From NCBI GenBank assembly GCA_041690135.1, contig JAWLHY010000003.1, forward strand, positions 832,001 to 896,000: DNA of 64,000 nt. The letters run 5' to 3'. Position 1 is the first letter of the stretch, and each line of letters begins with the position of its first letter. The stretch is from Armatimonadota bacterium (lineage in GTDB: Bacteria > Armatimonadota > SYMT01). Shown here one piece after another: positions 1 through 18,155 of the stretch. A model generated the notes under the pieces. It did no database searches, had not been told where the DNA came from, and saw only the letters and a program-made list of their open reading frames with translations. Made by a program: the position numbers and the translations under genes.

Positions 1-2457
1 ACGTGCGTGGGGACAAGGCTGTGAAGATCATCAATGGGCGGGGTGGTGGCGGTTCACCCCCACGTGCGTGGGGACAAGCGGTCTATCTGGTTCACAAGGT
101 TAAGGAGTCACGGTTCACCCCCACGTGCGTGGGGACAAGCGGGGCGTCGCTCGGGATCACCACCGGGCCCGCGGTTCACCCCCACGTGCGTGGGGACAAG
201 AAAACTGCCGGGCGGTAAAGCTCCGAGCCCGCCGGTTCACCCCCACGTGCGTGGGGACAAGAGGGCGCGCTCCTGCTCCGGAGTGAGCCGACCCGGTTCA
301 CCCCCACGTGCGTGGGGACAAGCTCACCCAGCTCCTCAACCGGCCCAATCCCCACGGTTCACCCCCACGTGCGTGGGGACAAGTCAGGATCGGCGCCTTG
401 TGCTCGCCCTGGAACCGGTTCACCCCCACGTGCGTGGGGACAAGGACTCGTCCAGGTTCGGCACGATCCGGCTGAACGGTTCACCCCCACGTGCGTGGGG
501 ACAAGCCCCTACGCGAACGCCTGACCTTCGCCCGCGTCGGTTCACCCCCACGTGCGTGGGGACAAGCGCGCCGAGGAGCACCCCTCGCAGGCTCGCCACG
601 GTTCACCCCCACGTGCGTGGGGACAAGGAGGTGCTGGACGCGATGCGGGAGTATGCGGCCGGTTCACCCCCACGTGCGTGGGGACAAGGAGGACCTCCGC
701 CTCCGGAAGAACTGCGTCCACGGTTCACCCCCACGTGCGTGGGGACAAGTGCGGTAGTGGAGTGCGTGCGCCGGGGTGGGGCGGTTCACCCCCACGTGCG
801 TGGGGACAAGACCACCCCCCCTATTGTCCGACAATAGGGCCTCGGTTCACCCCCACGTGCGTGGGGACAAGTCATCTCGTTCCTTCAACAGCCGCTCGGA
901 GCGCGGTTCACCCCCACGTGCGTGGGGACAAGGAGGAACTTCTCCGCCTGGGAGACGGCCTCCGCGGTTCACCCCCACGTGCGTGGGGACAAGGGTCTCG
1001 GCCCCGTCTTCCGGGTCGCCGTCCCCGGTTCACCCCCACGTGCGTGGGGACAAGTGTGGTGAGTGGTTGCAATCGCGCGGATGGGGCGGTTCACCCCCAC
1101 GTGCGTGGGGACAAGTGCCGGTTGGCATCGGAGAGGGACCGTCCGTCCGGTTCACCCCCACGTGCGTGGGGACAAGAACCCGTCGCCGGGCTCGGTGTTG
1201 CCCAGGTCCGGTTCACCCCCACGTGCGTGGGGACAAGTTTGCACCAGCCGCCTTCCAGTCTTGGCCCAACGGTTCACCCCCACGTGCGTGGGGACAAGCC
1301 TCGTGTCCGTCCGGGCAGGCCTGGAATTATCGGTTCACCCCCACGTGCGTGGGGACAAGTAATAGTGCTTTCGGCAACGTCTCCGTTAATCAGGTTCACC
1401 CCCACGTGCGTGGGGACAAGTGCTCGAAGTTGAGGACCCCCAGGTCCACCGTCGGTTCACCCCCACGTGCGTGGGGACAAGCTATCTCCCGTTCAAAAGG
1501 AACGGCCGGCCCACGGTTCACCCCCACGTGCGTGGGGACAAGGTCCGGTATCAACGCCTGCGCGAGGACCCCACCGGTTCACCCCCACGTGCGTGGGGAC
1601 AAGATCCCATCCAGTGCTGTCTGCACCCGTCGGGCCGGTTCACCCCCACGTGCGTGGGGACAAGCCGGCGGCATTCCTCGGCGGCGAACGTTTCGGCGGT
1701 TCACCCCCACGTGCGTGGGGACAAGCGGCAAGACCGGCACATCAGTGCCTTACCGGTCGGTTCACCCCCACGTGCGTGGGGACAAGATCCTGAACGAAAA
1801 GGCGTTGCGGACCCGCGCCGGTTCACCCCCACGTGCGTGGGGACAAGCCGTTTGATGTTGCCCAGCAGGTTCACCCCGGCGGTTCACCCCCACGTGCGTG
1901 GGGACAAGTTGATCTTGCGGTCGCGGATCTCGGCTTCCCACGGTTCACCCCCACGTGCGTGGGGACAAGCCGTTTGATGTTGCCCAGCAGGTTCACCCCG
2001 GCGGTTCACCCCCACGTGCGTGGGGACAAGAACTGCCGCGCTTTAAGGATGATCTCCTTCTTCGGTTCACCCCCACGTGCGTGGGGACAAGAGTCGAAGA
2101 ACGGGGTCTTGGTGCCCTGCTCCCGGTTCACCCCCACGTGCGTGGGGACAAGAACTGCCGCGCTTTAAGGATGATCTCCTTCTTCGGTTCACCCCCACGT
2201 GCGTGGGGACAAGAGTCGAAGAACGGGGTCTTGGTGCCCTGCTCCCGGTTCACCCCCACGTGCGTGGGGACAAGAACTGCCGCGCTTTAAGGATGATCTC
2301 CTTCTTCGGTTCACCCCCACGTGCGTGGGGACAAGGATCAGCAGCGCCGCAATCGCCGTCACCTTCGCGGTTCACCCCCACGTGCGTGGGGACAAGCTCT
2401 GGGGCCTGAAGCGCAGGGGGCGCCGTGTCGGTTCACCCCCACGTGCGTGGGGACAAG
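1..2457 (-). CRISPR. CRISPR array 1 (type I-E): 40 full repeats plus 1 partial, 32-nt spacers; truncated by the window start
   Basis: 29-bp repeat CGGTTCACCCCCACGTGCGTGGGGACAAG (minus strand CTTGTCCCCACGCACGTGGGGGTGAACCG) recurs every 61 bp from 50 to 2429; I-E-type hairpin ending in AACCG; leader at 2458+. Confidence 0.99.
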
Positions 2458-2508
2458 AGCAAACTTAGCGTTTGCTGGAACTGGCCAATGGGCGCTGCGG
2501 TGTAGGAA
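2458..2508 (-). promoter_or_regulatory. Short leader of array 1 with palindrome GCAAAC-N5-GTTTGC
   Basis: AGCAAACTTAG abuts the first repeat of all three arrays (2458, 6908, 18156); only 51 nt separate the array from the cas2 stop. Confidence 0.75.
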
Positions 2509-2973
2509 TCAGGTATCGGTTTCTTCGCCTGCGGATCCGGTTCCTTCCGGGAGGGGCGGTCCCTCTTCGGGAACGGCTGTCGCCACCGGTGCGGGTGCTG
2601 AGTCGTCTTCAACCGCGCCCGTTCCCGGTGGCTTGTCGGGTTTTTTGGCGGTTTTCCAGGCCGGGTCGTAGAGGTAGGGGACGCGGACCAGCGACAGGCC
2701 CTCCAGGTCGAGGACCTCGCGGCTGGGGTCGCCGTACTTGCGGAAGGTGAAGCCCTGCTCGGTGCGGGCGCCGTACACCATCAGCGCGCCGGGGCGCTTG
2801 TCGGGATCCTGGACCTTCGTCTTCTCACAGCTCTCGCAGACCATGGTCCAGAGCCGGTCGCGCACGAGAGCGCTCATGCGGCCGACGAACACGCCGGTCC
2901 GCGGCTCGATCATCCACCGGGAGAGCTCGCCCCGGAGCTTCACCGGGACCTTTTCAAGGATCATCACTACCAT
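2509..2973 (-). CDS. cas2: Type I-E Cas2 with a low-complexity C-terminal extension
   Basis: MVVMILEKVPVKLRGELSRWMIEPRTGVFVG...RDRLW...EQGF...DLEGLSL is typical of I-E Cas2; lies downstream of cas1. Confidence 0.95.
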   Translation of the reverse strand: MVVMILEKVPVKLRGELSRWMIEPRTGVFVGRMSALVRDRLWTMVCESCEKTKVQDPDKRPGALMVYGARTEQGFTFRKYGDPSREVLDLEGLSLVRVPYLYDPAWKTAKKPDKPPGTGAVEDDSAPAPVATAVPEEGPPLPEGTGSAGEETDT

Positions 2974-3000
2974 CTCGTCACCGTACCCTTCCGAAGGGGA

Positions 3001-3221
3001 TTCACCGCAGAGGCGCAGAGAACGCGGAGCCCACGCTGAGGGGAAAAGAAAGGCGGAGGGGAGAACGGGGAGATAGCTGATAACCGGCCAGACAGTTCGG
3101 CTGAGACTTCGGGCGTCCAGCGCGGAAACTTGAAGCCGGAACAGGATCTTCTCTCATCCAACGGAACTAGCCATTTCTTCCCTCTGCGCACTCTCAGCGT
3201 CCTCAGCGTCTCTGCGGTGAA
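3001..3221. mobile_element. Palindromic MITE/REP-like insertion between cas1 and cas2
   Basis: Terminal inverted repeats TTCACCGCAGAGGCGC (3001) and GCGTCTCTGCGGTGAA (ending 3221); no convincing ORF; abuts the cas1 stop. Confidence 0.6.
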
Positions 3222-4172
3222 CTATTCTTCGCCGGACATGTCTTCGCTGTAGTTGAGGCCGCCGGCGACGCCCTGGGGAGTGCCGGGCTCCCAGAGGTAG
3301 CCGGGGGCGGCGGGGTCTACGTCGCCTTCGAAGAGGTTTTCGATCGGCTCGGGCTTGAGGCCGAGGACGCGGGGGAGGTCGTCGGCGAGGCGGTCGAGGA
3401 GGCGGTGCTCGCGGAAGAGATCGCGGCAGGCGAGGCGGACGGAACGCTCCAGGGGACGGGTGTCCTGGGCGACGGTCCGGAACGCTAGGGGGATGGTGAT
3501 CACCGTTTTGTAGAGGTCGGCGATGTCGTAGACGAAGGAGAGCTGCTTGCCGGTGTGGATAAAGCCGAGCGCCGGGCTGAGGCCCATGGAGAGGATGGCG
3601 GCGTGGCAGAGGCCGTAGAGGCAGGAGTTGGCCGCGGAGAGGGCGCGGTTGACGGGATCCGCGGCGTTCCAGCTTCCGCGGTCGTAGTGGCGGCCGTGCC
3701 AGGGAACGCCGGTTTCCTGCGAGGCGCGCGCGTAAGTGTCGCGGACGCGCCGCCCCTCCCAGCCGCGGAGCTGCTCCAGGTTGAGGTTAGGGTCCACCTC
3801 TTCCTGGAAGCGCATCTGGTACATCCGCCGGGCGACCTCCAGGCGGAGCGTGTCGTCGCTGACGAGCCGGGCCTGGTGGAGCAGCCAGGAGGCGCTGCGC
3901 GTGCCGCCGGTCCCGTGCGCGTAGAACCGCACGCCCTGTTCCCCGCACCAGACGACGAGGCAGTTGCTTTCGGCCAGCACGGCCATGGCGGCGTGGGTGA
4001 CGCGGGTGCCGGGGCCGAGCATGAGGATGGCCAGGGAAGCGGCGGGGACGCGCGTTTCGCCGACCTGGTCGTACAGGGCGATGGCGGAGTCTTTGCGGTC
4101 GACGCAGCAGTGCTCGACGTAGAGGTACGAGAGGCTGTCGCGGAGCTTGGGTAGGGTGCGAAGGTCGTCCAT
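3222..4172 (-). CDS. cas1: Type I-E Cas1 integrase
   Basis: LSYLYVEH, LMLGPGTRVTHAA, WCGEQGVRFYA, LRGWEGRRVR, NRALSAANSCLYG, ALGFIHTGKQLSFVYDIADLYK. Confidence 0.98.
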   Translation of the reverse strand: MDDLRTLPKLRDSLSYLYVEHCCVDRKDSAIALYDQVGETRVPAASLAILMLGPGTRVTHAAMAVLAESNCLVVWCGEQGVRFYAHGTGGTRSASWLLHQARLVSDDTLRLEVARRMYQMRFQEEVDPNLNLEQLRGWEGRRVRDTYARASQETGVPWHGRHYDRGSWNAADPVNRALSAANSCLYGLCHAAILSMGLSPALGFIHTGKQLSFVYDIADLYKTVITIPLAFRTVAQDTRPLERSVRLACRDLFREHRLLDRLADDLPRVLGLKPEPIENLFEGDVDPAAPGYLWEPGTPQGVAGGLNYSEDMSGEE

Positions 4173-4228
4173 TGTAGCTATCCCTTTACCGAACGGGTTG
4201 GCCCGCGGAATTCGCGGAAAGCGGGCCT

Positions 4229-4961
4229 TGGTTCACCCCCACGGTGCGTGGGGATTATTGCGTCCACTCATTCGTGGTGGCGAAGCTACCATGGTCCTAC
4301 TCATTGCCTGGAGGTGCTACCGTGGGGTCGCCCCCAGCCCTTGCCTTGGGCCGCCGCCCTCCCGCGGAATCAGCCTCCGCTCGGCCTTTCACGCTCGTCG
4401 CTCGCTAGCGGCCGGCTCCGGCGTGCTCACCAGGCCCTGTGTTCCGCGCCGCTGACGGGCGCTGCAACCATTCCGGGCGTAGACGGGCGGCGCCCCGGCG
4501 TCTTCGAGCTATCCCCCCGTCCGGGGAGATCACAAGGGCCCGGCTCTGCCGGGCTCTGGTTGCCGGGCACCCCCCACATGCGTGGGGACAAGGTATCCGG
4601 CCCGACCTTTCGCGACTCCCGGGTTGAGGAGTTGGCGAAGCTTCGTGGATGTTGTGCTGTTTCCCACTACCACTACCGTGGGGTCGCCCCCAGCCCTTGC
4701 ATTGGGCCGCCACCCTCCCGCGGAAGAAGCCTCCGCTCGGCCTTTCACGCTCGTCCCTCGCTAGCGGCCGGCTCCGGCGTGCAGCCCAAGACCTGGGCGC
4801 CGCGCTGCTGCCGGGCACTGGAACCAGTCGATGCGTGGACGGGCGGCGCCCCGGCGTCTTCGAGCTATCCCCCCGTCCGGGGAGATCACATAGGCCCGGC
4901 GCTGCCGGGCTTCGTTTTCCGTCCCCCCCACGTGCGTGGGGGGGACGGAAAACGAAGCCCG
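4229..4961 (-). repeat. Trailer extension of array 2: three degenerate CRISPR repeats separating two homologous ~300-330 nt units (356-bp period)
   Basis: Degenerate repeats at 4229-4258, 4563-4592 and ~4919-4953; homologous blocks 4317-4555 and 4673-4911. Confidence 0.85.
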
Positions 4962-4984
4962 CCCTCGGTCTCCAGGTCCGGCCG

Positions 4985-6907
4985 CGGTCCACCCCCACGT
5001 GCGTGGGGAAAACTCGACCCGCTTCGCGCCGGCCAGCTCGCTCGTCGGTCCACCCCCACGTGCGTGGGGAAAACGCCCGCCATGGCTACCGCATAGTAGG
5101 GAGCATCGGTCCACCCCCACGTGCGTGGGGAAAACGCGCACACGCTCTCCCGGAATGCCCGCGACAACGGTCCACCCCCACGTGCGTGGGGAAAACTGGG
5201 CAGCCTTATCGCCCCCTTTCTCTAGCTGCGGTCCACCCCCACGTGCGTGGGGAAAACTTCTGCTTCCTGCTGGCGCTTCCGCTTCTCGGCTGGTCCACCC
5301 CCACGTGCGTGGGGAAAACTTCGCCAGAGAGGCGGGCCTGGGCCTGACGGGCGGTCCACCCCCACGTGCGTGGGGAAAACGCGGCGACGTCGTTCTCTTC
5401 CTTCGCGGCCTTCGGTCCACCCCCACGTGTGTGGGGAAAACCCGGGGGGCTGGTCGGTGTAGACCTTCACCAGCGGTCCACCCCCACGTGCGTGGGGAAA
5501 ACACCACCTGTGGGCGCGGGGGACCGAACCGCGACGGTCCACCCCCACGTGCGTGGGGAAAACTAGGGCACCGTGGAGGCCGGCCACTCCTTCGCCGGTC
5601 CACCCCCACGTGCGTGGGGAAAACGTCAAACGGCGCAAGGCATTGTTTCGCCATGTAGGTCCACCCCCACGTGCGTGGGGAAAACGCCCGCCCCCGCGCT
5701 AGTGGACGGCGGGGCTGCGGTCCACCCCCACGTGCGTGGGGAAAACGTGGTCGGCGCTGGCGCGCAGCACCCGCCGGGCGGTCCACCCCCACGTGCGTGG
5801 GGAAAACGCTGCTTCCTCGATGGTCTCATACAGCCCCAGCGGTCCACCCCCACGTGCGTGGGGAAAACGGCGCGGGCGAGGGCGGCGCGGGCACGCTGTC
5901 CGGTCCACCCCCACGTGCGTGGGGAAAACAGCAACATAGGACATCAGTAGCTCCCCTGGAACGGTCCACCCCCACGTGCGTGGGGAAAACTGGACTGCTG
6001 AAAGAGGACGGGACGCTCTGGGCGGTCCACCCCCACGTGCGTGGGGAAAACGCCAGCCGCGCCCACCTCCCGCCAGCCCGCCGCCGGTCCACCCCCACGT
6101 GCGTGGGGAAAACTCGTCTACTACTACGCTCAGCACCCGCTCCAGCGGTCCACCCCCACGTGCGTGGGGAAAACATGAGCCCTGCCCTGTGGCGGGCGGC
6201 GGATACCGGTCCACCCCCACGTGCGTGGGGAAAACTCATGACCTCTTCCGGGTCCTGCGGCATGCCGCGGTCCACCCCCACGTGCGTGGGGAAAACATCC
6301 CCACTTTCCAAGGATGTGGAGTTTGGGGCGGTCCACCCCCACGTGCGTGGGGAAAACACATCCGCCTCACTGATCGTCCGTCCGCGGACCGGTCCACCCC
6401 CACGTGCGTGGGGAAAACGTGACGCTGGACGCGGATGCCTGGGAAGTGGACGGTCCACCCCCACGTGCGTGGGGAAAACACGATAGCCTCACCTTCGCTC
6501 ATATCCTCTTCCGGTCCACCCCCACGTGCGTGGGGAAAACGCCGGTAAGCCCGCGACAGCGGTTCATACTGGCCGGTCCACCCCCACGTGCGTGGGGAAA
6601 ACGTCCGGCCGAATTCAGCGCCCATCGGCATCTCCGGTCCACCCCCACGTGCGTGGGGAAAACAACCGCGCCCACACTTCCGCCGCCACCTTCGACGGTC
6701 CACCCCCACGTGCGTGGGGAAAACCGCCCAGCGCTAGATAGGCGGCCACGATGAGGCGGTCCACCCCCACGTGCGTGGGGAAAACCTGGTACCACTTGTC
6801 CGGGTTCTCGCTCTCCTCGGTCCACCCCCACGTGCGTGGGGAAAACTCCAGAACTGCCCCCGTGGTACTTAACGAACGCGGTCCACCCCCACGTGCGTGG
6901 GGAAAAC
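4985..6907 (-). CRISPR. CRISPR array 2 (type I-E, variant repeat), 32 repeats, between cas6e and cas1
   Basis: Repeat CGGTCCACCCCCACGTGCGTGGGGAAAAC (minus strand GTTTTCCCCACGCACGTGGGGGTGGACCG), 61-62 bp period; leader motif at 6908. Confidence 0.99.
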
Positions 6908-6948
6908 AGCAAACTTAGATTAGCGCTTGCATGGAGGTTCGTGTGCTC

Positions 6949-7617
6949 TCAGTTTGCGGGGGCGAGGGAGAGGAGCCCGAAGCCGAAGCCTTTGGCGGTG
7001 CCGATACCGGCGCGGAGGGTGGCGAGGAAGAGCTCCGGATTCCGGACTTCTAGCAGGCCTTCGAATTCGACGCAGGCGTAGGGAACGCTTTTCCCCGCGG
7101 ACTTGCGGACAAGAACTACCCCGCGGTCGGTGACGGTGAAGGTGGTGGGCGCAAACCCGCCTTGCTCTCCTTTGCGGTGCAGCCAGCTCCGTTGGGCGAC
7201 CTCGGTTTCCTGGGGGTCGTCGAAGACGAGTGCCCGGCGCGCGCCGTCTTTGGGTTTGCCGGTGCGTGCATCGACCGCGTGCCCGCCGGGCTCCCGGCGA
7301 GTGGGGTTGGCGGTCAGGCGAAAGCGCAGGCTTTGCCCGGCGGAGAACTTCAGGTCGAGCGCTTTCACCTGTGGGGTGACGGCCAGGTAACGACCGCTGT
7401 TCTCCAGGCGGCGCCAATCCGGCTCGGCCAGAGATTGGACCAGCACTCGCGGCCCCCGCCGGCTTTCCTCGGCTCGGAACAGGCAGCGTGCTTCCTGATA
7501 GGCCTGTCCGTCCGGAAAGCCGGTGGAAAGCGTCCGATGCAGTTGATACACGTCGCGCAACTCGGACCGTACCCGGGGAGAGGCGGGGTTCAACTCCAAC
7601 AGCGTGAGGTAGATCAT
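6949..7617 (-). CDS. cas6e: Cas6e (CasE) crRNA endoribonuclease
   Basis: DVYQLHRTL, LVQS..PDW, LRFRLTANP, C-terminal glycine-rich loop GIGTAKGFGFGLLSL. Confidence 0.97.
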   Translation of the reverse strand: MIYLTLLELNPASPRVRSELRDVYQLHRTLSTGFPDGQAYQEARCLFRAEESRRGPRVLVQSLAEPDWRRLENSGRYLAVTPQVKALDLKFSAGQSLRFRLTANPTRREPGGHAVDARTGKPKDGARRALVFDDPQETEVAQRSWLHRKGEQGGFAPTTFTVTDRGVVLVRKSAGKSVPYACVEFEGLLEVRNPELFLATLRAGIGTAKGFGFGLLSLAPAN

Positions 7618-8381
7618 CCGTTGCCTCCTACGGCAGTCCCTCCCTGCGGAGGGTTTACGTGGATGCAGCGACAGTGGCGAAAGGCATACTGCCGTGCGAG
7701 GTTGACACGCAGGGCATCCTGGCGAACCAGGTCACCTACCGGGTCTTCAATGAAGGCCTGCAAGGGAAAGGATGGCGGCGACTTCCGCTGCGCGTGCGCG
7801 CTGCCTCGCCAGTCCCAGGGATGCCGGGTAAGGGCCTCCTCGATGCCGGAATAGACCTGTGTCAGGGTCTCCAGGATGGGGCGGGTGGGAATACAGGCCT
7901 TGCGCCCGAGGTAGAGCGGCCACGCCGGAGCCCCAAGTGCCCCTGCGGCGGTGGTTAACAGGCCGGCTCCCCGTTCGGTTTCCTCCAGGGCCACCAGGAA
8001 CGCGGCATCCTCCAGGTAGTACCGGGGCGAGATGATGGTGGCGGGAGTGGCGTCCGGGTCGCGGCCCAGCCGCTCCAGCGAGGTGGCCGTTTTCAACCCG
8101 GAGTGCCGATACGTGCCTTCGGCGGTCGGAAGAAACCCGCTAACGGTGTGATAGTCGAGCATCACCCGGCCGGGCGCTTCTACCCGTACGCCGAAGCGCA
8201 GCCCCGCGTCCAGGGCTTCGAGGCGCGCGTCTCCGACGGGGTACCCGAGCGCGCAGCCCAGCAAGCCGATGACGCCAGATTTGGTCGGCTCCGCCTGGGT
8301 ATCCCGTACGTCCCAGCGGGCACGCACGCCCCAGGACTGCAACGGCCCTTCCAGGCGGAGCAGCAACACGGGCTTACCCAT
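7614..8381 (-). CDS. cas5e: Cas5e (CasD)
   Basis: LLLRLEGPLQSWG...RDT...PTKSGVIGLLGCALG, DYHTV, RYYLEDAAF, LYLGRKACIP. Confidence 0.97.
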   Translation of the reverse strand: MGKPVLLLRLEGPLQSWGVRARWDVRDTQAEPTKSGVIGLLGCALGYPVGDARLEALDAGLRFGVRVEAPGRVMLDYHTVSGFLPTAEGTYRHSGLKTATSLERLGRDPDATPATIISPRYYLEDAAFLVALEETERGAGLLTTAAGALGAPAWPLYLGRKACIPTRPILETLTQVYSGIEEALTRHPWDWRGSAHAQRKSPPSFPLQAFIEDPVGDLVRQDALRVNLARQYAFRHCRCIHVNPPQGGTAVGGNG

Positions 8382-14749: not shown

Positions 14750-15754
14750 TCAGGGGTCCCCATACCGCTCCGCGGCGCGGCGGTGCTCTTCGCGGACCCG
14801 TTCCCGCAGCGCCTCGGGGGCTTCCACCACCACGTGGCTCCCGTAGCCGAGGACCCAGCGGGTGAGGTCTCCCTCTCCGGCGACGGTGAGCCGCAGCCGG
14901 ACCTCGCCCCCCGGCAGCTCCTCCAACACCTGTGTGGGGTGCCACGTCCGCTCGTGGATCCAGCGGGCCTGGTAGGCGTCGAAGCGGAGGACCACCTCCT
15001 GCGGCGTGCTGCCGTGCTCCGTCCGGAAGGTGTGCTTCCGGTAAGTCTCGCGGGAAAGCTCCGGGCGCGGGCGGAACCCGGTGTCCAGGACCGTCCACTC
15101 GCGCACCCGGGAGAGCATGAACACGCGGTCGGCATCGCGCCACTCGTCCCAGGCCACGCACATCCAGTCGCCGGCGACATTGGTGAGGAAGTGGGGATGG
15201 ATCACCCGCTCCCCCAACTCGTCGCGACCCGCCGTGTAGTAGAGGATCCGCAGTTTCCGGTGCTCCCGGATCGCCCGGCGGAAGTCGGCCATCAGGGAAG
15301 CCGGCACCGCCACGCTGGTGGCCCCGGCGAACTCGTAGGTATCGGCCACGTCCTCCATGGCCACCTCCACCCCTTCCGGCAGGTGGCGCTGGAGCTTCTC
15401 GATGGCGGTCCGCAGCTCCGCCTCCAGGGGCGATCCCAGGTACTGGCGCGTGACCTCCCGGGCCAGGACCAGGGCCAGCAGCTCTCCCTCCCGGAAGAAG
15501 ACCGCGGGGAGGGCGTAAGTCGGCTCGGTGTAGACGTAGCCTTTCCGCCGGCGGTCGTACCGGATGGGCGCCTCCAGCGAGTCGCGGAGGTAGTCCAGGG
15601 TATCGAAGACGGTCCGCCGGGCGATCCCGAATGCTTCCTGGATGGCGCGGACGTTGGGGCTGCCGCCCTGCCGGATCTGGCGGTCGATCCAGACGACGCG
15701 GGCCCACATCCCGGCGGGGTCGCCGGGCTGACGTTGGGGGGTGCGAGGTTCCAT
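14750..15754 (-). CDS. HTH-WYL-WCX transcriptional regulator (YafY/PafB-like)
   Basis: N-terminal HTH (FGIARRTVFDTLDYLRD...IRYDRRRKGYVY), WYL domain (YYTAGR...RVIHPH...WMCVAWDEWR..RVFMLSRV), WCX end (WVLGYGSHVVVEAPEALR). Confidence 0.92.
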   Translation of the reverse strand: MEPRTPQRQPGDPAGMWARVVWIDRQIRQGGSPNVRAIQEAFGIARRTVFDTLDYLRDSLEAPIRYDRRRKGYVYTEPTYALPAVFFREGELLALVLAREVTRQYLGSPLEAELRTAIEKLQRHLPEGVEVAMEDVADTYEFAGATSVAVPASLMADFRRAIREHRKLRILYYTAGRDELGERVIHPHFLTNVAGDWMCVAWDEWRDADRVFMLSRVREWTVLDTGFRPRPELSRETYRKHTFRTEHGSTPQEVVLRFDAYQARWIHERTWHPTQVLEELPGGEVRLRLTVAGEGDLTRWVLGYGSHVVVEAPEALRERVREEHRRAAERYGDP

Positions 15755-16020: not shown

Positions 16021-16894
16021 GTGATCGTTCACCCTGACTGCGCACGGCGTGGTGCGAACACAAAAGCTTGATCCGGTTTGGCCGTGTAACCTCATCCCCG
16101 CCACCCAGAGGGTGCCCCCCACCCAAAGGGTGCCCCCCACCCAAAGGGTGCCCGGTCCGACGCAGAGAGGGGCTATCGGTGTGTGCCCAATCCGGCGGTG
16201 CAATTTCCAGAGATGCCGTCGGCTACGACTGCCGACGTCCTGAACTTCCACCAAGCCTCAGCGCAACCGTGACCGTGGAGTCTGCGAAGACCAACACCAT
16301 TCCTCTACTGCGCGAGGGCTTCCCCCTTCTCTGCGTCGGAGAAGTTTACGCCCCGCGGGGGTGGGGGACCGAGGGGGATGAGGTTACTACGGGCGCCGCA
16401 GCCGTGGATGATAATGGACCAGCGCCTTGTAGAATCCAGGTGGAACGCTGGATGTCGTGTTCGGTCCACCCCCACGTGCGTGGGTACCCATTTCCGTGGC
16501 CGTTCACCTCGACGGCACACAACGGGGTGCGGATTACAAGGTCTCGGTCCGGTTTGGCCGTGGAATCTCACCCCAACCCCTCTCCGACGCAGAGAGGGGC
16601 TATCGGCTCGGACACAGTCCGGCGGTACACACACCGGAGATACCGTGAGCTACGACCGCCGAAGTTCTGATCGCCCATCGCTTCGCCCATTCGCGAGCGT
16701 GACCACGCCTCCTGCAAAAGACAAGATTCACTCCGTTCTGAACACGGGCTTCCCCCTTCTCTGTGTCGGAGAAGTTTACGCCCCGCGGGGGTGGGGGATT
16801 GAGGGGGATGAGGTTACCACGGCCACCGAAGCCATTAGCGGTGTCGCACTCCAAGCCTTCCCGACCCCTGGTAAACCGCTGGTTGTCGTGTCGG
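16021..16894 (-). repeat. Trailer extension of array 3: two homologous ~405-440 nt palindromic units separated by a degenerate repeat (16462-16489)
   Basis: Shared blocks TCCGGTTTGGCCGTG, TCCGACGCAGAGAGGGGCTATCGG and GGGCTTCCCCCTTCTCTG...GAGGGGGATGAGGTTAC in both units; internal inverted repeats. Confidence 0.85.
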
Positions 16895-18155
16895 CAGTCT
16901 ACCCCCACGTGCGTGGGGACAAGGGCCACGCCCGCTTCCACCTTCACCACGTAGATCGGTTCACCCCCACGTGCGTGGGGACAAGGGCCACGCCCGCTTC
17001 CACCTTCACCACGTAGATCGGTTCACCCCCACGTGCGTGGGGACAACGCGATCTCATCCATCGTCGCTTCAGCCACCAGCGGTTCACCCCCACGTGCGTG
17101 GGGACAACAGGACCGGAACATCCAGCGTGCGGGCCAATACCGGTTCATCCCCACGTGCGTGGGGACAAGCACGCTTCCCAGGCGGCCTTCCGTTCCTCAA
17201 CCGGTTCACCCCCACGTGCGTGGGGACAAGCTACTCGGATAGCAACGTGACGCTGGGCCGCTTCGGTTCACCCCCACGTGCGTGGGGACAAGTCAGGCGA
17301 TCCTCAGGTGGGAGCCGCGCTCCACGGTTCACCCCCACGTGCGTGGGGACAAGTCCGGAATCCCACTCTTCCGGCGCCCCATGGTCCGGTTCACCCCCAC
17401 GTGCGTGGGGACAAGCTGTGCGACCACCTGCGCACCGCCGTATTCATCGGTTCACCCCCACGTGCGTGGGGACAAGAGTGGGTCCAACAGGCTCGTCTCC
17501 GCGCTCACCGGTTCACCCCCACGTGCGTGGGGACAAGCTGGCGCTCACGCTGGAGGTATAGGACATCAACTGGTTCACCCCCACGTGCGTGGGGACAAGG
17601 CGTAGGAGAGGGGCTGGAAGCCCGGCCACGTCTTGCCGGTTCACCCCCACGTGCGTGGGGACAAGGCAAACCGCCCGCGAACCGCCGCCGCCGTCCGCGG
17701 TTCACCCCCACGTGCGTGGGGACAAGATGACGTTCCTCGCGACGATCCATCAGGGACTCGGTTCACCCCCACGTGCGTGGGGACAAGCCCCCTGCCCTGC
17801 GGTTCGGGGTCGGTGTGGTACGGTTCACCCCCACGTGCGTGGGGACAAGCCTGCGGCCTGCAGAGCTGTTTTGGGCAGATACGGTTCACCCCCACGTGCG
17901 TGGGGACAAGGCGATGGCCTCCCGTGGGGAGTTGCAAAACTCCGGTTCACCCCCACGTGCGTGGGGACAAGGAGATGAGATCCGTAGAGAATACCGTGAC
18001 CTACGGTTCACCCCCACGTGCGTGGGGACAAGTTCTCGCCGTTCAGCGCGTATCCGCTCGCGTCCGGTTCACCCCCACGTGCGTGGGGACAAGGGTACCG
18101 GGTTGTCTTCCCTTCCCCCCGCTTTACGGTTCACCCCCACGTGCGTGGGGACAAG
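16895..18155 (-). CRISPR. CRISPR array 3 (same repeat as array 1), 21 repeats / 20 spacers
   Basis: CGGTTCACCCCCACGTGCGTGGGGACAAG repeats from 16895 (degenerate) to 18127; leader AGCAAACTTAGCGTTTGC at 18156. Confidence 0.99.

Follow-up and report, generated by a model that had tools for sequence, protein, structure and literature searches.

The type I-E locus and its arrays

The window analysed here is a stretch of 64,000 nucleotides (contig C3, positions 832001-896000) from the 9.1-Mb genome of an Armatimonadota bacterium. The genome has 65% G+C and also encodes planctomycete-type PSD/PSCyt proteins. A type I-E CRISPR locus with three arrays occupies the following positions, in minus-strand gene order except for the third array.

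14753-15754, minus strand: gene for a WYL-domain regulator, first in the gene order and followed by cas3
Upstream of cas6e, minus strand: cas3, cse1, cse2, cas7 and cas5 (Pfam PF09704, PF09344, PF09485, PF09481, PF18019)
6949-7617, minus strand: cas6e (PF08798), the putative processing enzyme
4985-6907, minus strand: array 2, with 32 canonical I-E repeats (GTTTTCCCCACGCACGTGGGGGTGGACCG); C3:836985-838903
3222-4172, minus strand: cas1 (PF01867)
2509-2973, minus strand: cas2 (PF09707)
From 2490 down, past the window start to C3:831692, minus strand: array 1, after cas2
16903-18135, minus strand: array 3

On the minus strand the order thus runs from cas6e through array 2 and the region 4960-4230 to cas1, cas2 and array 1. 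Array 2 has a leader of ~45 nt, directly after the cas6e stop codon, and its first repeat is at 6907. Read as the reverse complement, the repeats (GTTTTCCCCACGCACGTGGGGGTGGACCG, CTTGTCCCCACGCACGTGGGGGTGAACCG) combine a 6-bp stem with a 4-nt loop and an 8-nt 3′ handle, the layout of type I-E repeats such as those of Thermus and E. coli. A palindromic motif, CAAACGCTAAGTTTGCT (GCGCTAATCTAAGTTTGCT in array 2), touches the first repeat of all three arrays on the high-coordinate side. Transcription therefore proceeds from right to left, and the units described below lie at the trailer end of array 2, where the initial annotation had placed them.

None of 80 related loci, which were found through Cas1 relatives in 80 other species, showed an array between cas6e and cas1; arrays in these loci were detected only downstream of cas1-cas2 and in 0/80 upstream. 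The genome contains 102 matches to the CRISPR repeat pattern. All 92 ordinary spacers that were extracted are 25-45 nt long, with a period of 61.

Two long units in the trailer of array 2

The region between the last canonical repeat of array 2 and cas1 contains the following features, in the direction of transcription.

4907-4960: perfect 54-nt palindrome
4593-4918, minus strand: unit B, 326 nt (structured core 4917-4667, tail 4666-4593)
4563-4592, minus strand: degenerate repeat between B and A (CTTGTCCCCACGCATGTGGGGGGTGCCCGG)
4259-4562, minus strand: unit A, 304 nt (structured core 4561-4312, tail 4311-4259)
4254-4283, minus strand: sigma-70-like promoter match where the unit A tail meets the last repeat (TCGCCA, 18-nt spacer, AATAAT)
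4230-4258, minus strand: terminal degenerate repeat (AATAATCCCCACGCACCGTGGGGGTGAACC)

From the letters of this region the initial annotation had described two homologous units set between three repeat-like hairpins. Hairpins are indeed present at all three places (4919-4953, 4563-4592 and 4230-4259), and the homology of the units is beyond doubt. A repeat search aligns 4317-4573 with 4673-4929 (257 nt, 88% identical, period 356), nhmmer recovers the two units with E = 5e-106 and 1e-96, far beyond chance, and all three conserved blocks quoted in that description occur in both units on the minus strand. A canonical I-E spacer spans ~32-33 nt between full 29-nt repeats; these units, at 304 and 326 nt, do not fit that definition.

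The nature of the hairpins required partial revision. Those at 4563-4592 and 4230-4258 are degenerate repeats, and in these two of the three flanking repeats the 6-bp CCCCAC/GTGGGG stem is intact while loops and handles deviate. The repeat between the units has the loop GCAT, an altered 3′ handle and an array-1-like 5′ end; the terminal one has a 5-nt loop (GCACC) and AATAAT in place of its 5′ end. The hairpin at 4919-4953, on the other hand, is not a plain degenerate repeat but part of the 54-nt palindrome, which has a 25-bp stem and, in the RNA sense, the 4-nt loop GCAC. The right arm of the palindrome in the RNA sense (4931-4907) is composed of the 3′ half of a degenerate repeat and the start of unit B, and the left arm is an inverted copy of the right arm that has overwritten the 5′ half of the repeat. 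Comparison with the equivalent junctions of array 1 identifies the repeat 3′ half and the unit B start as the original half. The palindrome is probably a recent, hairpin-mediated rearrangement rather than a Cas6e-type repeat. A search of positions 2400-8000 against Rfam 15 at E ≤ 1 returned nothing on the units and only miRNA models (mir-299 and similar) on the palindrome, which were rejected as artefacts of the long hairpin. A near-palindrome (GGCCCGCGGAATTCGCGGAAAGCGGGCC) lies at 4200-4227, between unit A and cas1.

A conserved fold on the crRNA-sense strand

The units had been called structured, and homologous copies found elsewhere give this description firm support. The structure was derived from 36 aligned copies, of which this genome supplied 15 and G005, a genome of a related genus, the other 21; later copies from G005 and those from G006, which belongs to another genus of the family, were left out of it. 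RNAalifold assigns -60.3 kcal/mol to the crRNA-sense strand versus -39.0 to the other strand. The fold comprises 38 pairs in 7 helices, and 95.0% of the 1350 cells pair. Shuffled alignments pair at 76.2 ± 0.7%, with 0/500 reaching the observed value, a contrast that is inflated by the kinship of the copies; sliding the partners, a control that kinship does not affect, lowers pairing to 34-48%. Compensatory cells number 241, as against 79 in shuffles, with double changes at 23 pairs, and 11 of the 14 pairs of a 14-bp long-range helix show double changes. The 5′ hairpin, P1, covaries as well and reaches -5 kcal/mol or lower in 32 of the 36 copies. Invariant blocks of the element are CGCGG and CGCGGGAGGG.

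The strand on which the fold operates can be read from the mismatches that it tolerates. There are 121 G-U and 18 A-C cells (55 versus 18 when two near-invariant G-U columns are removed), and this excess of G-U over A-C fixes the folded strand as the crRNA-sense strand. Loop insertions of 19, 22, 29 and 35 nt are not divisible by three and rule out a conserved reading frame. On these data, RNA and single-stranded DNA are both possible settings for the fold.

The copies within the arrays retain 34-36 of the 38 pairs, like the rest of their subfamily. Differences among them amount to 2-5 of 74 paired columns and 26-41 of 175-189 unpaired columns, a contrast to which gene conversion or the family-wide definition of the column classes could contribute. 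This pattern argues that the fold of the CRISPR units stayed constrained, or was homogenised, after they diverged. Nothing else speaks as strongly for a function in place as this low divergence of the paired columns.

Copies elsewhere in the genome and in related bacteria

The genome holds 15 copies of the element according to nhmmer and 16 according to a covariance model, R1, which represents the 3′ half of the element (110 positions). Twelve of the 16 lie away from any array and four at CRISPR trailers. Besides A and B, the trailer copies are a second pair just outside the window:

C3:831683-831360, crRNA-sense: unit C, in the array 1 trailer, with degenerate repeats on both sides
C3:830901-830601, crRNA-sense: unit D, in the array 1 trailer, with degenerate repeats on both sides

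All 12 non-CRISPR copies are intergenic. Their neighbours include genes for PfkB, NIF3, an amidohydrolase, Uma2 and a PQQ dehydrogenase, as well as a PSD protein, AbiJ, FHA, ankyrin and cadherin proteins. Eight of the 12 form four divergent pairs with 5′ ends facing, ~100-270 nt apart. Five loci, cas1 included, have a copy 44-139 nt upstream of a gene in the same orientation, whereas the copies at other places are convergent or antisense. The CRISPR repeat core is absent from the contigs that carry the 12 copies, and none of the 92 spacers matches an element copy. A decayed CRISPR remnant was considered for the solo copy at C2:552343 and rejected, as its flanks show no repeat-like sequence above the shuffled level.

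With model R1 the element is found in three of seven genomes of the family, with 16 copies here, at least 138 in G005 (among 150 candidates scored) and eight in G006. An even sample of the phylum gave the same three carriers among 151 genomes. The 80 other I-E loci contain none (0/80, best E = 0.49). In G005 there is one match to the CRISPR repeat, at three mismatches, and the repeat core was not found near the element loci examined in G005, G006 and one metagenome contig. That contig was the only one among the metagenome contigs to carry the element pattern; viral contigs gave 0 pattern matches, and blastn of plasmid and phage collections gave no match to the element. Rfam searches of 19 paired-element loci from the relatives returned two unrelated sub-threshold matches and no family. 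Judged by Rfam 15 and these sequence collections, the element is undescribed. Among sequencing runs, three of soil DNA match the stretch, with shares of 0.05-0.09, and no RNA run does.

These counts bear directly on the alternatives that had been offered for the units. A common dispersed repeat, together with a lack of processing at the degenerate repeats, was named at the outset as the finding that would speak against RNAs released from the array by Cas6e, and the first half of this is what the genome search found, with 12 of 16 copies far from arrays. The other suggestion, REP-like elements that colonised the trailer, proves largely correct in that the unit is dispersed: 15-16 copies here, at least 138 in a relative and none in the 80 I-E loci. 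It departs from a REP in size, since the element is ~250-300 nt long with a multi-helix fold supported by covariation, and not a short REP.

The relatives display the element in further arrangements. The commonest form in G005 is a composite of ~800 bp, with two divergent arms and terminal regions of ~100 nt, which has sharp ends and unrelated flanks. Neither of its tips (TCTGTACTACT... and ...GCCGCGCTGTG) is an inverted copy of the other. Both composite junctions show CTGT, and TCTGT/ACAGA motifs abound in several flanks. One composite copy in G005 is flanked by a direct duplication of ~55 nt. In solo arms of the same genome, homology begins at RAAC/C (the slash marks the boundary) just before the first hairpin and stops after the last. 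A stretch of G005 (C40:12001-31000) contains six same-strand solo arms spaced ~1.4-3.7 kb apart, mostly ~3.5 kb, that occupy successive intergenic gaps of a gene cluster, and three to four of the arms run antisense to the genes beside them. G006 contains tandem direct runs with a period of ~430-570 nt, partial units included (for example C47:3001-5600), and these runs are free of CRISPR repeats. A CRISPR-like central hairpin in the paired elements of the relative was also considered; it gave four matches at up to four mismatches, about the number expected by chance on our own estimate, and was dropped.

A search for a mobilising enzyme gave no partner for the element among the four classes that were looked at (TnpB, Y1, IS110 and RVT_1). 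TnpB (PF07282) is found in 0/3 carrier genomes; in the control, 8 of 14 genomes were positive. All three carriers have Y1 transposases and two have IS110, this genome not being one of the two, and no element lies within 1.5 kb of Y1 or IS110 genes at the 11 loci examined (0/8 for Y1_Tnp). G005 has no RVT_1 reverse transcriptase. Neither terminal inverted repeats nor a target-site duplication could be defined, there being no consistent duplication beyond the shared CTGT.

History of the units inside the arrays

The four CRISPR units group in a single clade (UFboot 86, SH-aLRT 73; one of 500 label shuffles gave a value as low), and the sister of this clade is the solo non-CRISPR copy at C2:552343. 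All four are crRNA-sense, and each begins directly after a repeat (..GTGAACGG/AAACC..). The repeats upstream of B, C and D end in ..ACGG, and that upstream of A in ..CCGG, versus the canonical ..ACCG; the unit starts immediately thereafter (..GG/AAAC C..). The last shared motif of the units (AGCTTCGCC) is separated from the next repeat by 25-41 nt whose sequence is particular to each tail type. The start of each unit right after a repeat, together with this residual tail, fits entry at or near a repeat-spacer junction that left most of the spacer behind.

By their tails, B belongs with C and A with D. The tails of B and C share 19/19 identical nucleotides (TCAACCCGGGAGTCGCGAA), a stretch that occurs at no other place in the genome. 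The two tail types may represent two different residual spacers, and hence two events at the same junction; alternatively, they may have arisen by later recombination. The order repeat-B-repeat-A-repeat in array 2 has its counterpart in array 1 as repeat-C-repeat-T1-repeat-D-repeat-T2. The cores do not show the B/C and A/D grouping of the tails, which suggests gene conversion.

T1 and T2 in this scheme are copies of a second giant spacer, module T, which is repeat-bounded and present twice in each of two trailers:

16156-16477 and 16487-16828: module T, array 3 trailer
C3:830143-830484 and C3:830927-831351: module T, array 1 trailer, outside the window

Copies of T are 340-425 nt long and 80-89% identical, and they include a short REP-like hairpin (GATAGCCCCTCTCTGCGTCGGAGAGGGG...) of which further copies are scattered over the genome. 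An origin of T from a leader was rejected, because T has no similarity to any array leader.

Other traces of rearrangement are found in the arrays. Array 1 contains a duplicated block of two spacers (2002-2123 is identical to 2124-2245 at 100% and matches 2246-2367 at 81%), and in array 3 the two oldest spacers have the same sequence (~16925-16957 and 16986-17018). A repeat of the array 2 type (GTTTTCCCCACGCACGTGGCGGTGGACCG) lies inside the array 1 trailer, at C3:831745-831769, and points to exchange between arrays. Such sequence relationships make recombination evident in these arrays, and the duplicated spacers are evidence of repeat-mediated duplication.

Origin and possible roles of the units

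The giant spacers are copies of a lineage-restricted, structured, dispersed element that are probably carried by the array as passengers; nothing in the analysis links them to CRISPR function. Because most copies lie off the arrays (12/16), and because a relative without such an array has at least 138, the units are not CRISPR-specific. One copy, or possibly two, probably landed immediately after a repeat in an ancestral I-E array, with most of the old spacer remaining. Repeat-mediated duplication and array-to-array recombination would then have spread the repeat-unit module, as with ordinary spacers, and the outcome would be the two units in the array 2 trailer and the two homologous units in that of array 1. 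In the arrays the units would be transcribed only as read-through of the pre-crRNA. The element itself may be a non-autonomous mobile repeat whose fold, in RNA or single-stranded DNA, is recognised by a mobilising enzyme, or it may be a multi-copy family of non-coding RNA genes. The mobile repeat is favoured, at a little better than an even chance, and the RNA gene family is distinctly less probable.

Several observations count against a passenger. There is no mobilising enzyme, nor are there definable terminal inverted repeats or a target duplication, among the features searched. All four CRISPR copies are crRNA-sense and junction-precise. If the two tail types are two residual spacers, two insertions occurred at one junction, which is unlike random transposition. 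Finally, conservation of the paired columns among the CRISPR units implies that the fold has been kept since they diverged, and this is not required of a dead passenger.

Some of these observations also lend weight to the proposal that the array serves as a platform for expression and processing, with the units as functional structured RNAs in the pre-crRNA and Cas6e cutting at the degenerate repeats. The folded strand is the crRNA strand in 4/4 copies, repeat hairpins bracket each unit and retain the 6-bp stem in two of the three cases in the window, 34-36 of the 38 pairs are intact with paired columns conserved between units, and an intact cas6e lies upstream. Going by their stems, two of the three hairpins could be Cas6e substrates, whereas the first, with its 25-bp palindrome in place of a Cas6e-type stem, probably is not one. 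The handles of the degenerate repeats also deviate from the canonical form, the units follow 32 spacers at the far end of the transcript, and the element thrives without CRISPR, both off-array in this genome and in the relative with its copies numbering at least 138, while it was not found in the 80 other I-E loci. We regard processing of this kind as unlikely. It is also conceivable, if quite improbable, that a functional multi-copy structured RNA, or a mobile element that seeks hairpins, entered the arrays at least twice, junction-precise and crRNA-sense, and would now be transcribed from the array and excised by Cas6e.

The location of unit A, which ends 87 nt before cas1, raises the question of a role in cis. 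Array 2 cuts cas1-cas2 off from the cas operon, an arrangement seen in 0/80 related loci, and the units might be kept as a promoter or 5′ leader for these genes or as an insulator against read-through. The sigma-70-like match lies ~85 nt upstream of the cas1 ATG (one found versus 0.0 expected in 50 shuffles), and four other loci likewise have a copy 44-139 nt upstream of a gene in the same orientation. The near-palindrome at 4200-4227 and the promoter match may constitute an operator and a promoter for cas1-cas2. The match is, however, a bare consensus match, other copies are convergent or antisense to their neighbours, and no cas gene follows the units of array 1, so that retention for a role in cis is very unlikely. 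Least probable of the explanations considered is that Cas1-Cas2 integrated both the units and the 340-425 nt T modules as over-long spacers, which were later displaced to the trailer. The 5′ end of each unit does abut a repeat, and T, the second long insert, is likewise repeat-bounded in the trailers of arrays 1 and 3. The inserts are, however, the dispersed repeat of the host and not foreign DNA, the canonical last two bases are missing from the upstream repeats, and ~25-40 nt of non-element sequence separate each unit from the next repeat. The T copies, as paralogues that are 80-89% identical, fit duplication better than separate captures, and the other 92 spacers examined are of normal length.

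Comparison with known repeats and structured RNAs

REPs are hairpins of ~20-40 nt, and REPINs are ~100 nt long; both are mobilised by RAYT (Y1) transposases. They occur in high copy number between genes, their fold matters, they are often found as inverted doublets, and their copy number varies among relatives. The element resembles them as a folded, intergenic, high-copy repeat with inverted doublets whose number varies between relatives. It differs in that its arms are ~250 nt with seven helices instead of a 20-40 nt palindrome, and in that the Y1 genes have no element within 1.5 kb (0/8 Y1_Tnp loci), so that no RAYT is associated with it at these loci.

Structured RNAs of ~150-300 nt at the ends of mobile elements are represented by the omega RNA (reRNA) of TnpB, the HEARO RNA of IscB and the bridge RNA of IS110, along with derivatives that lack the protein. 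The paired form of the element resembles these in that each arm reads outward to the element end. Unlike those systems, the carriers have no TnpB (PF07282 in 0/3), and IS110 is absent from this genome and not adjacent to the element in the relatives; on the IscB side, the Rfam HEARO model gave no match. CreA of CreTA is a spacer-sized guide that is flanked by degenerate repeats and pairs with a toxin gene, repressing the adjacent toxin RNA. The degenerate repeats around a non-canonical insert near a type I cas locus recall CreA, but the insert here is a dispersed repeat of ~300 nt with no toxin partner in view, and the CreA guide is spacer-sized; the units do not answer to the description of CreTA.

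A precedent is provided by MITEs within CRISPR arrays. HqIRS37 lies inside a spacer of Haloquadratum walsbyi (PMC3119063), and a 134-nt MITE splits the Anabaena arrays CR_6/CR_7 (bioRxiv 10.1101/2020.04.14.041012). In these cases a non-coding, multi-copy genomic repeat between two CRISPR repeats takes on the appearance of an over-long spacer, as it does here. Relative to these MITEs, the element is larger, has a conserved multi-helix fold, and showed no terminal inverted repeats or target duplication. The unit abuts the repeat and does not split a spacer midway, and it has been duplicated with its repeat to give four copies in two arrays. In more general terms the element shares with MITEs a short, non-coding, multi-copy character (16, at least 138 and 8 copies in the three carriers), with unrelated flanks and sharp boundaries; terminal inverted repeats, a target-site duplication and an autonomous partner, which also characterise MITEs, were not found.

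An over-long “spacer” derived from a genomic repeat is thus already known. What differs in the present case is the type of element, its placement exactly after the repeat in the crRNA sense, and its multiplication together with the repeats.

Implications

The finding carries a warning for CRISPR biology, in that “giant spacers” bounded by repeats in a trailer can be genomic repeats multiplied by array recombination. There is a small chance that the junction-precise sense copies instead allow Cas6e-dependent release of a non-guide RNA. If true, excision by Cas6e would mean that a CRISPR array has been exapted as a promoter-and-processing cassette for a non-guide RNA whose fold is under selection. 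The more useful product is the element itself, a structured domain of ~250 nt for which the covariation evidence is unusually strong. Rfam 15 does not contain it, and every carrier among the genomes searched belongs to one bacterial family. Its copy number varies from 0 to at least 138 per genome, and it has no recognisable transposase. Whether it represents a family of RNA genes or structure-dependent mobile DNA of a new kind can now be tested directly.
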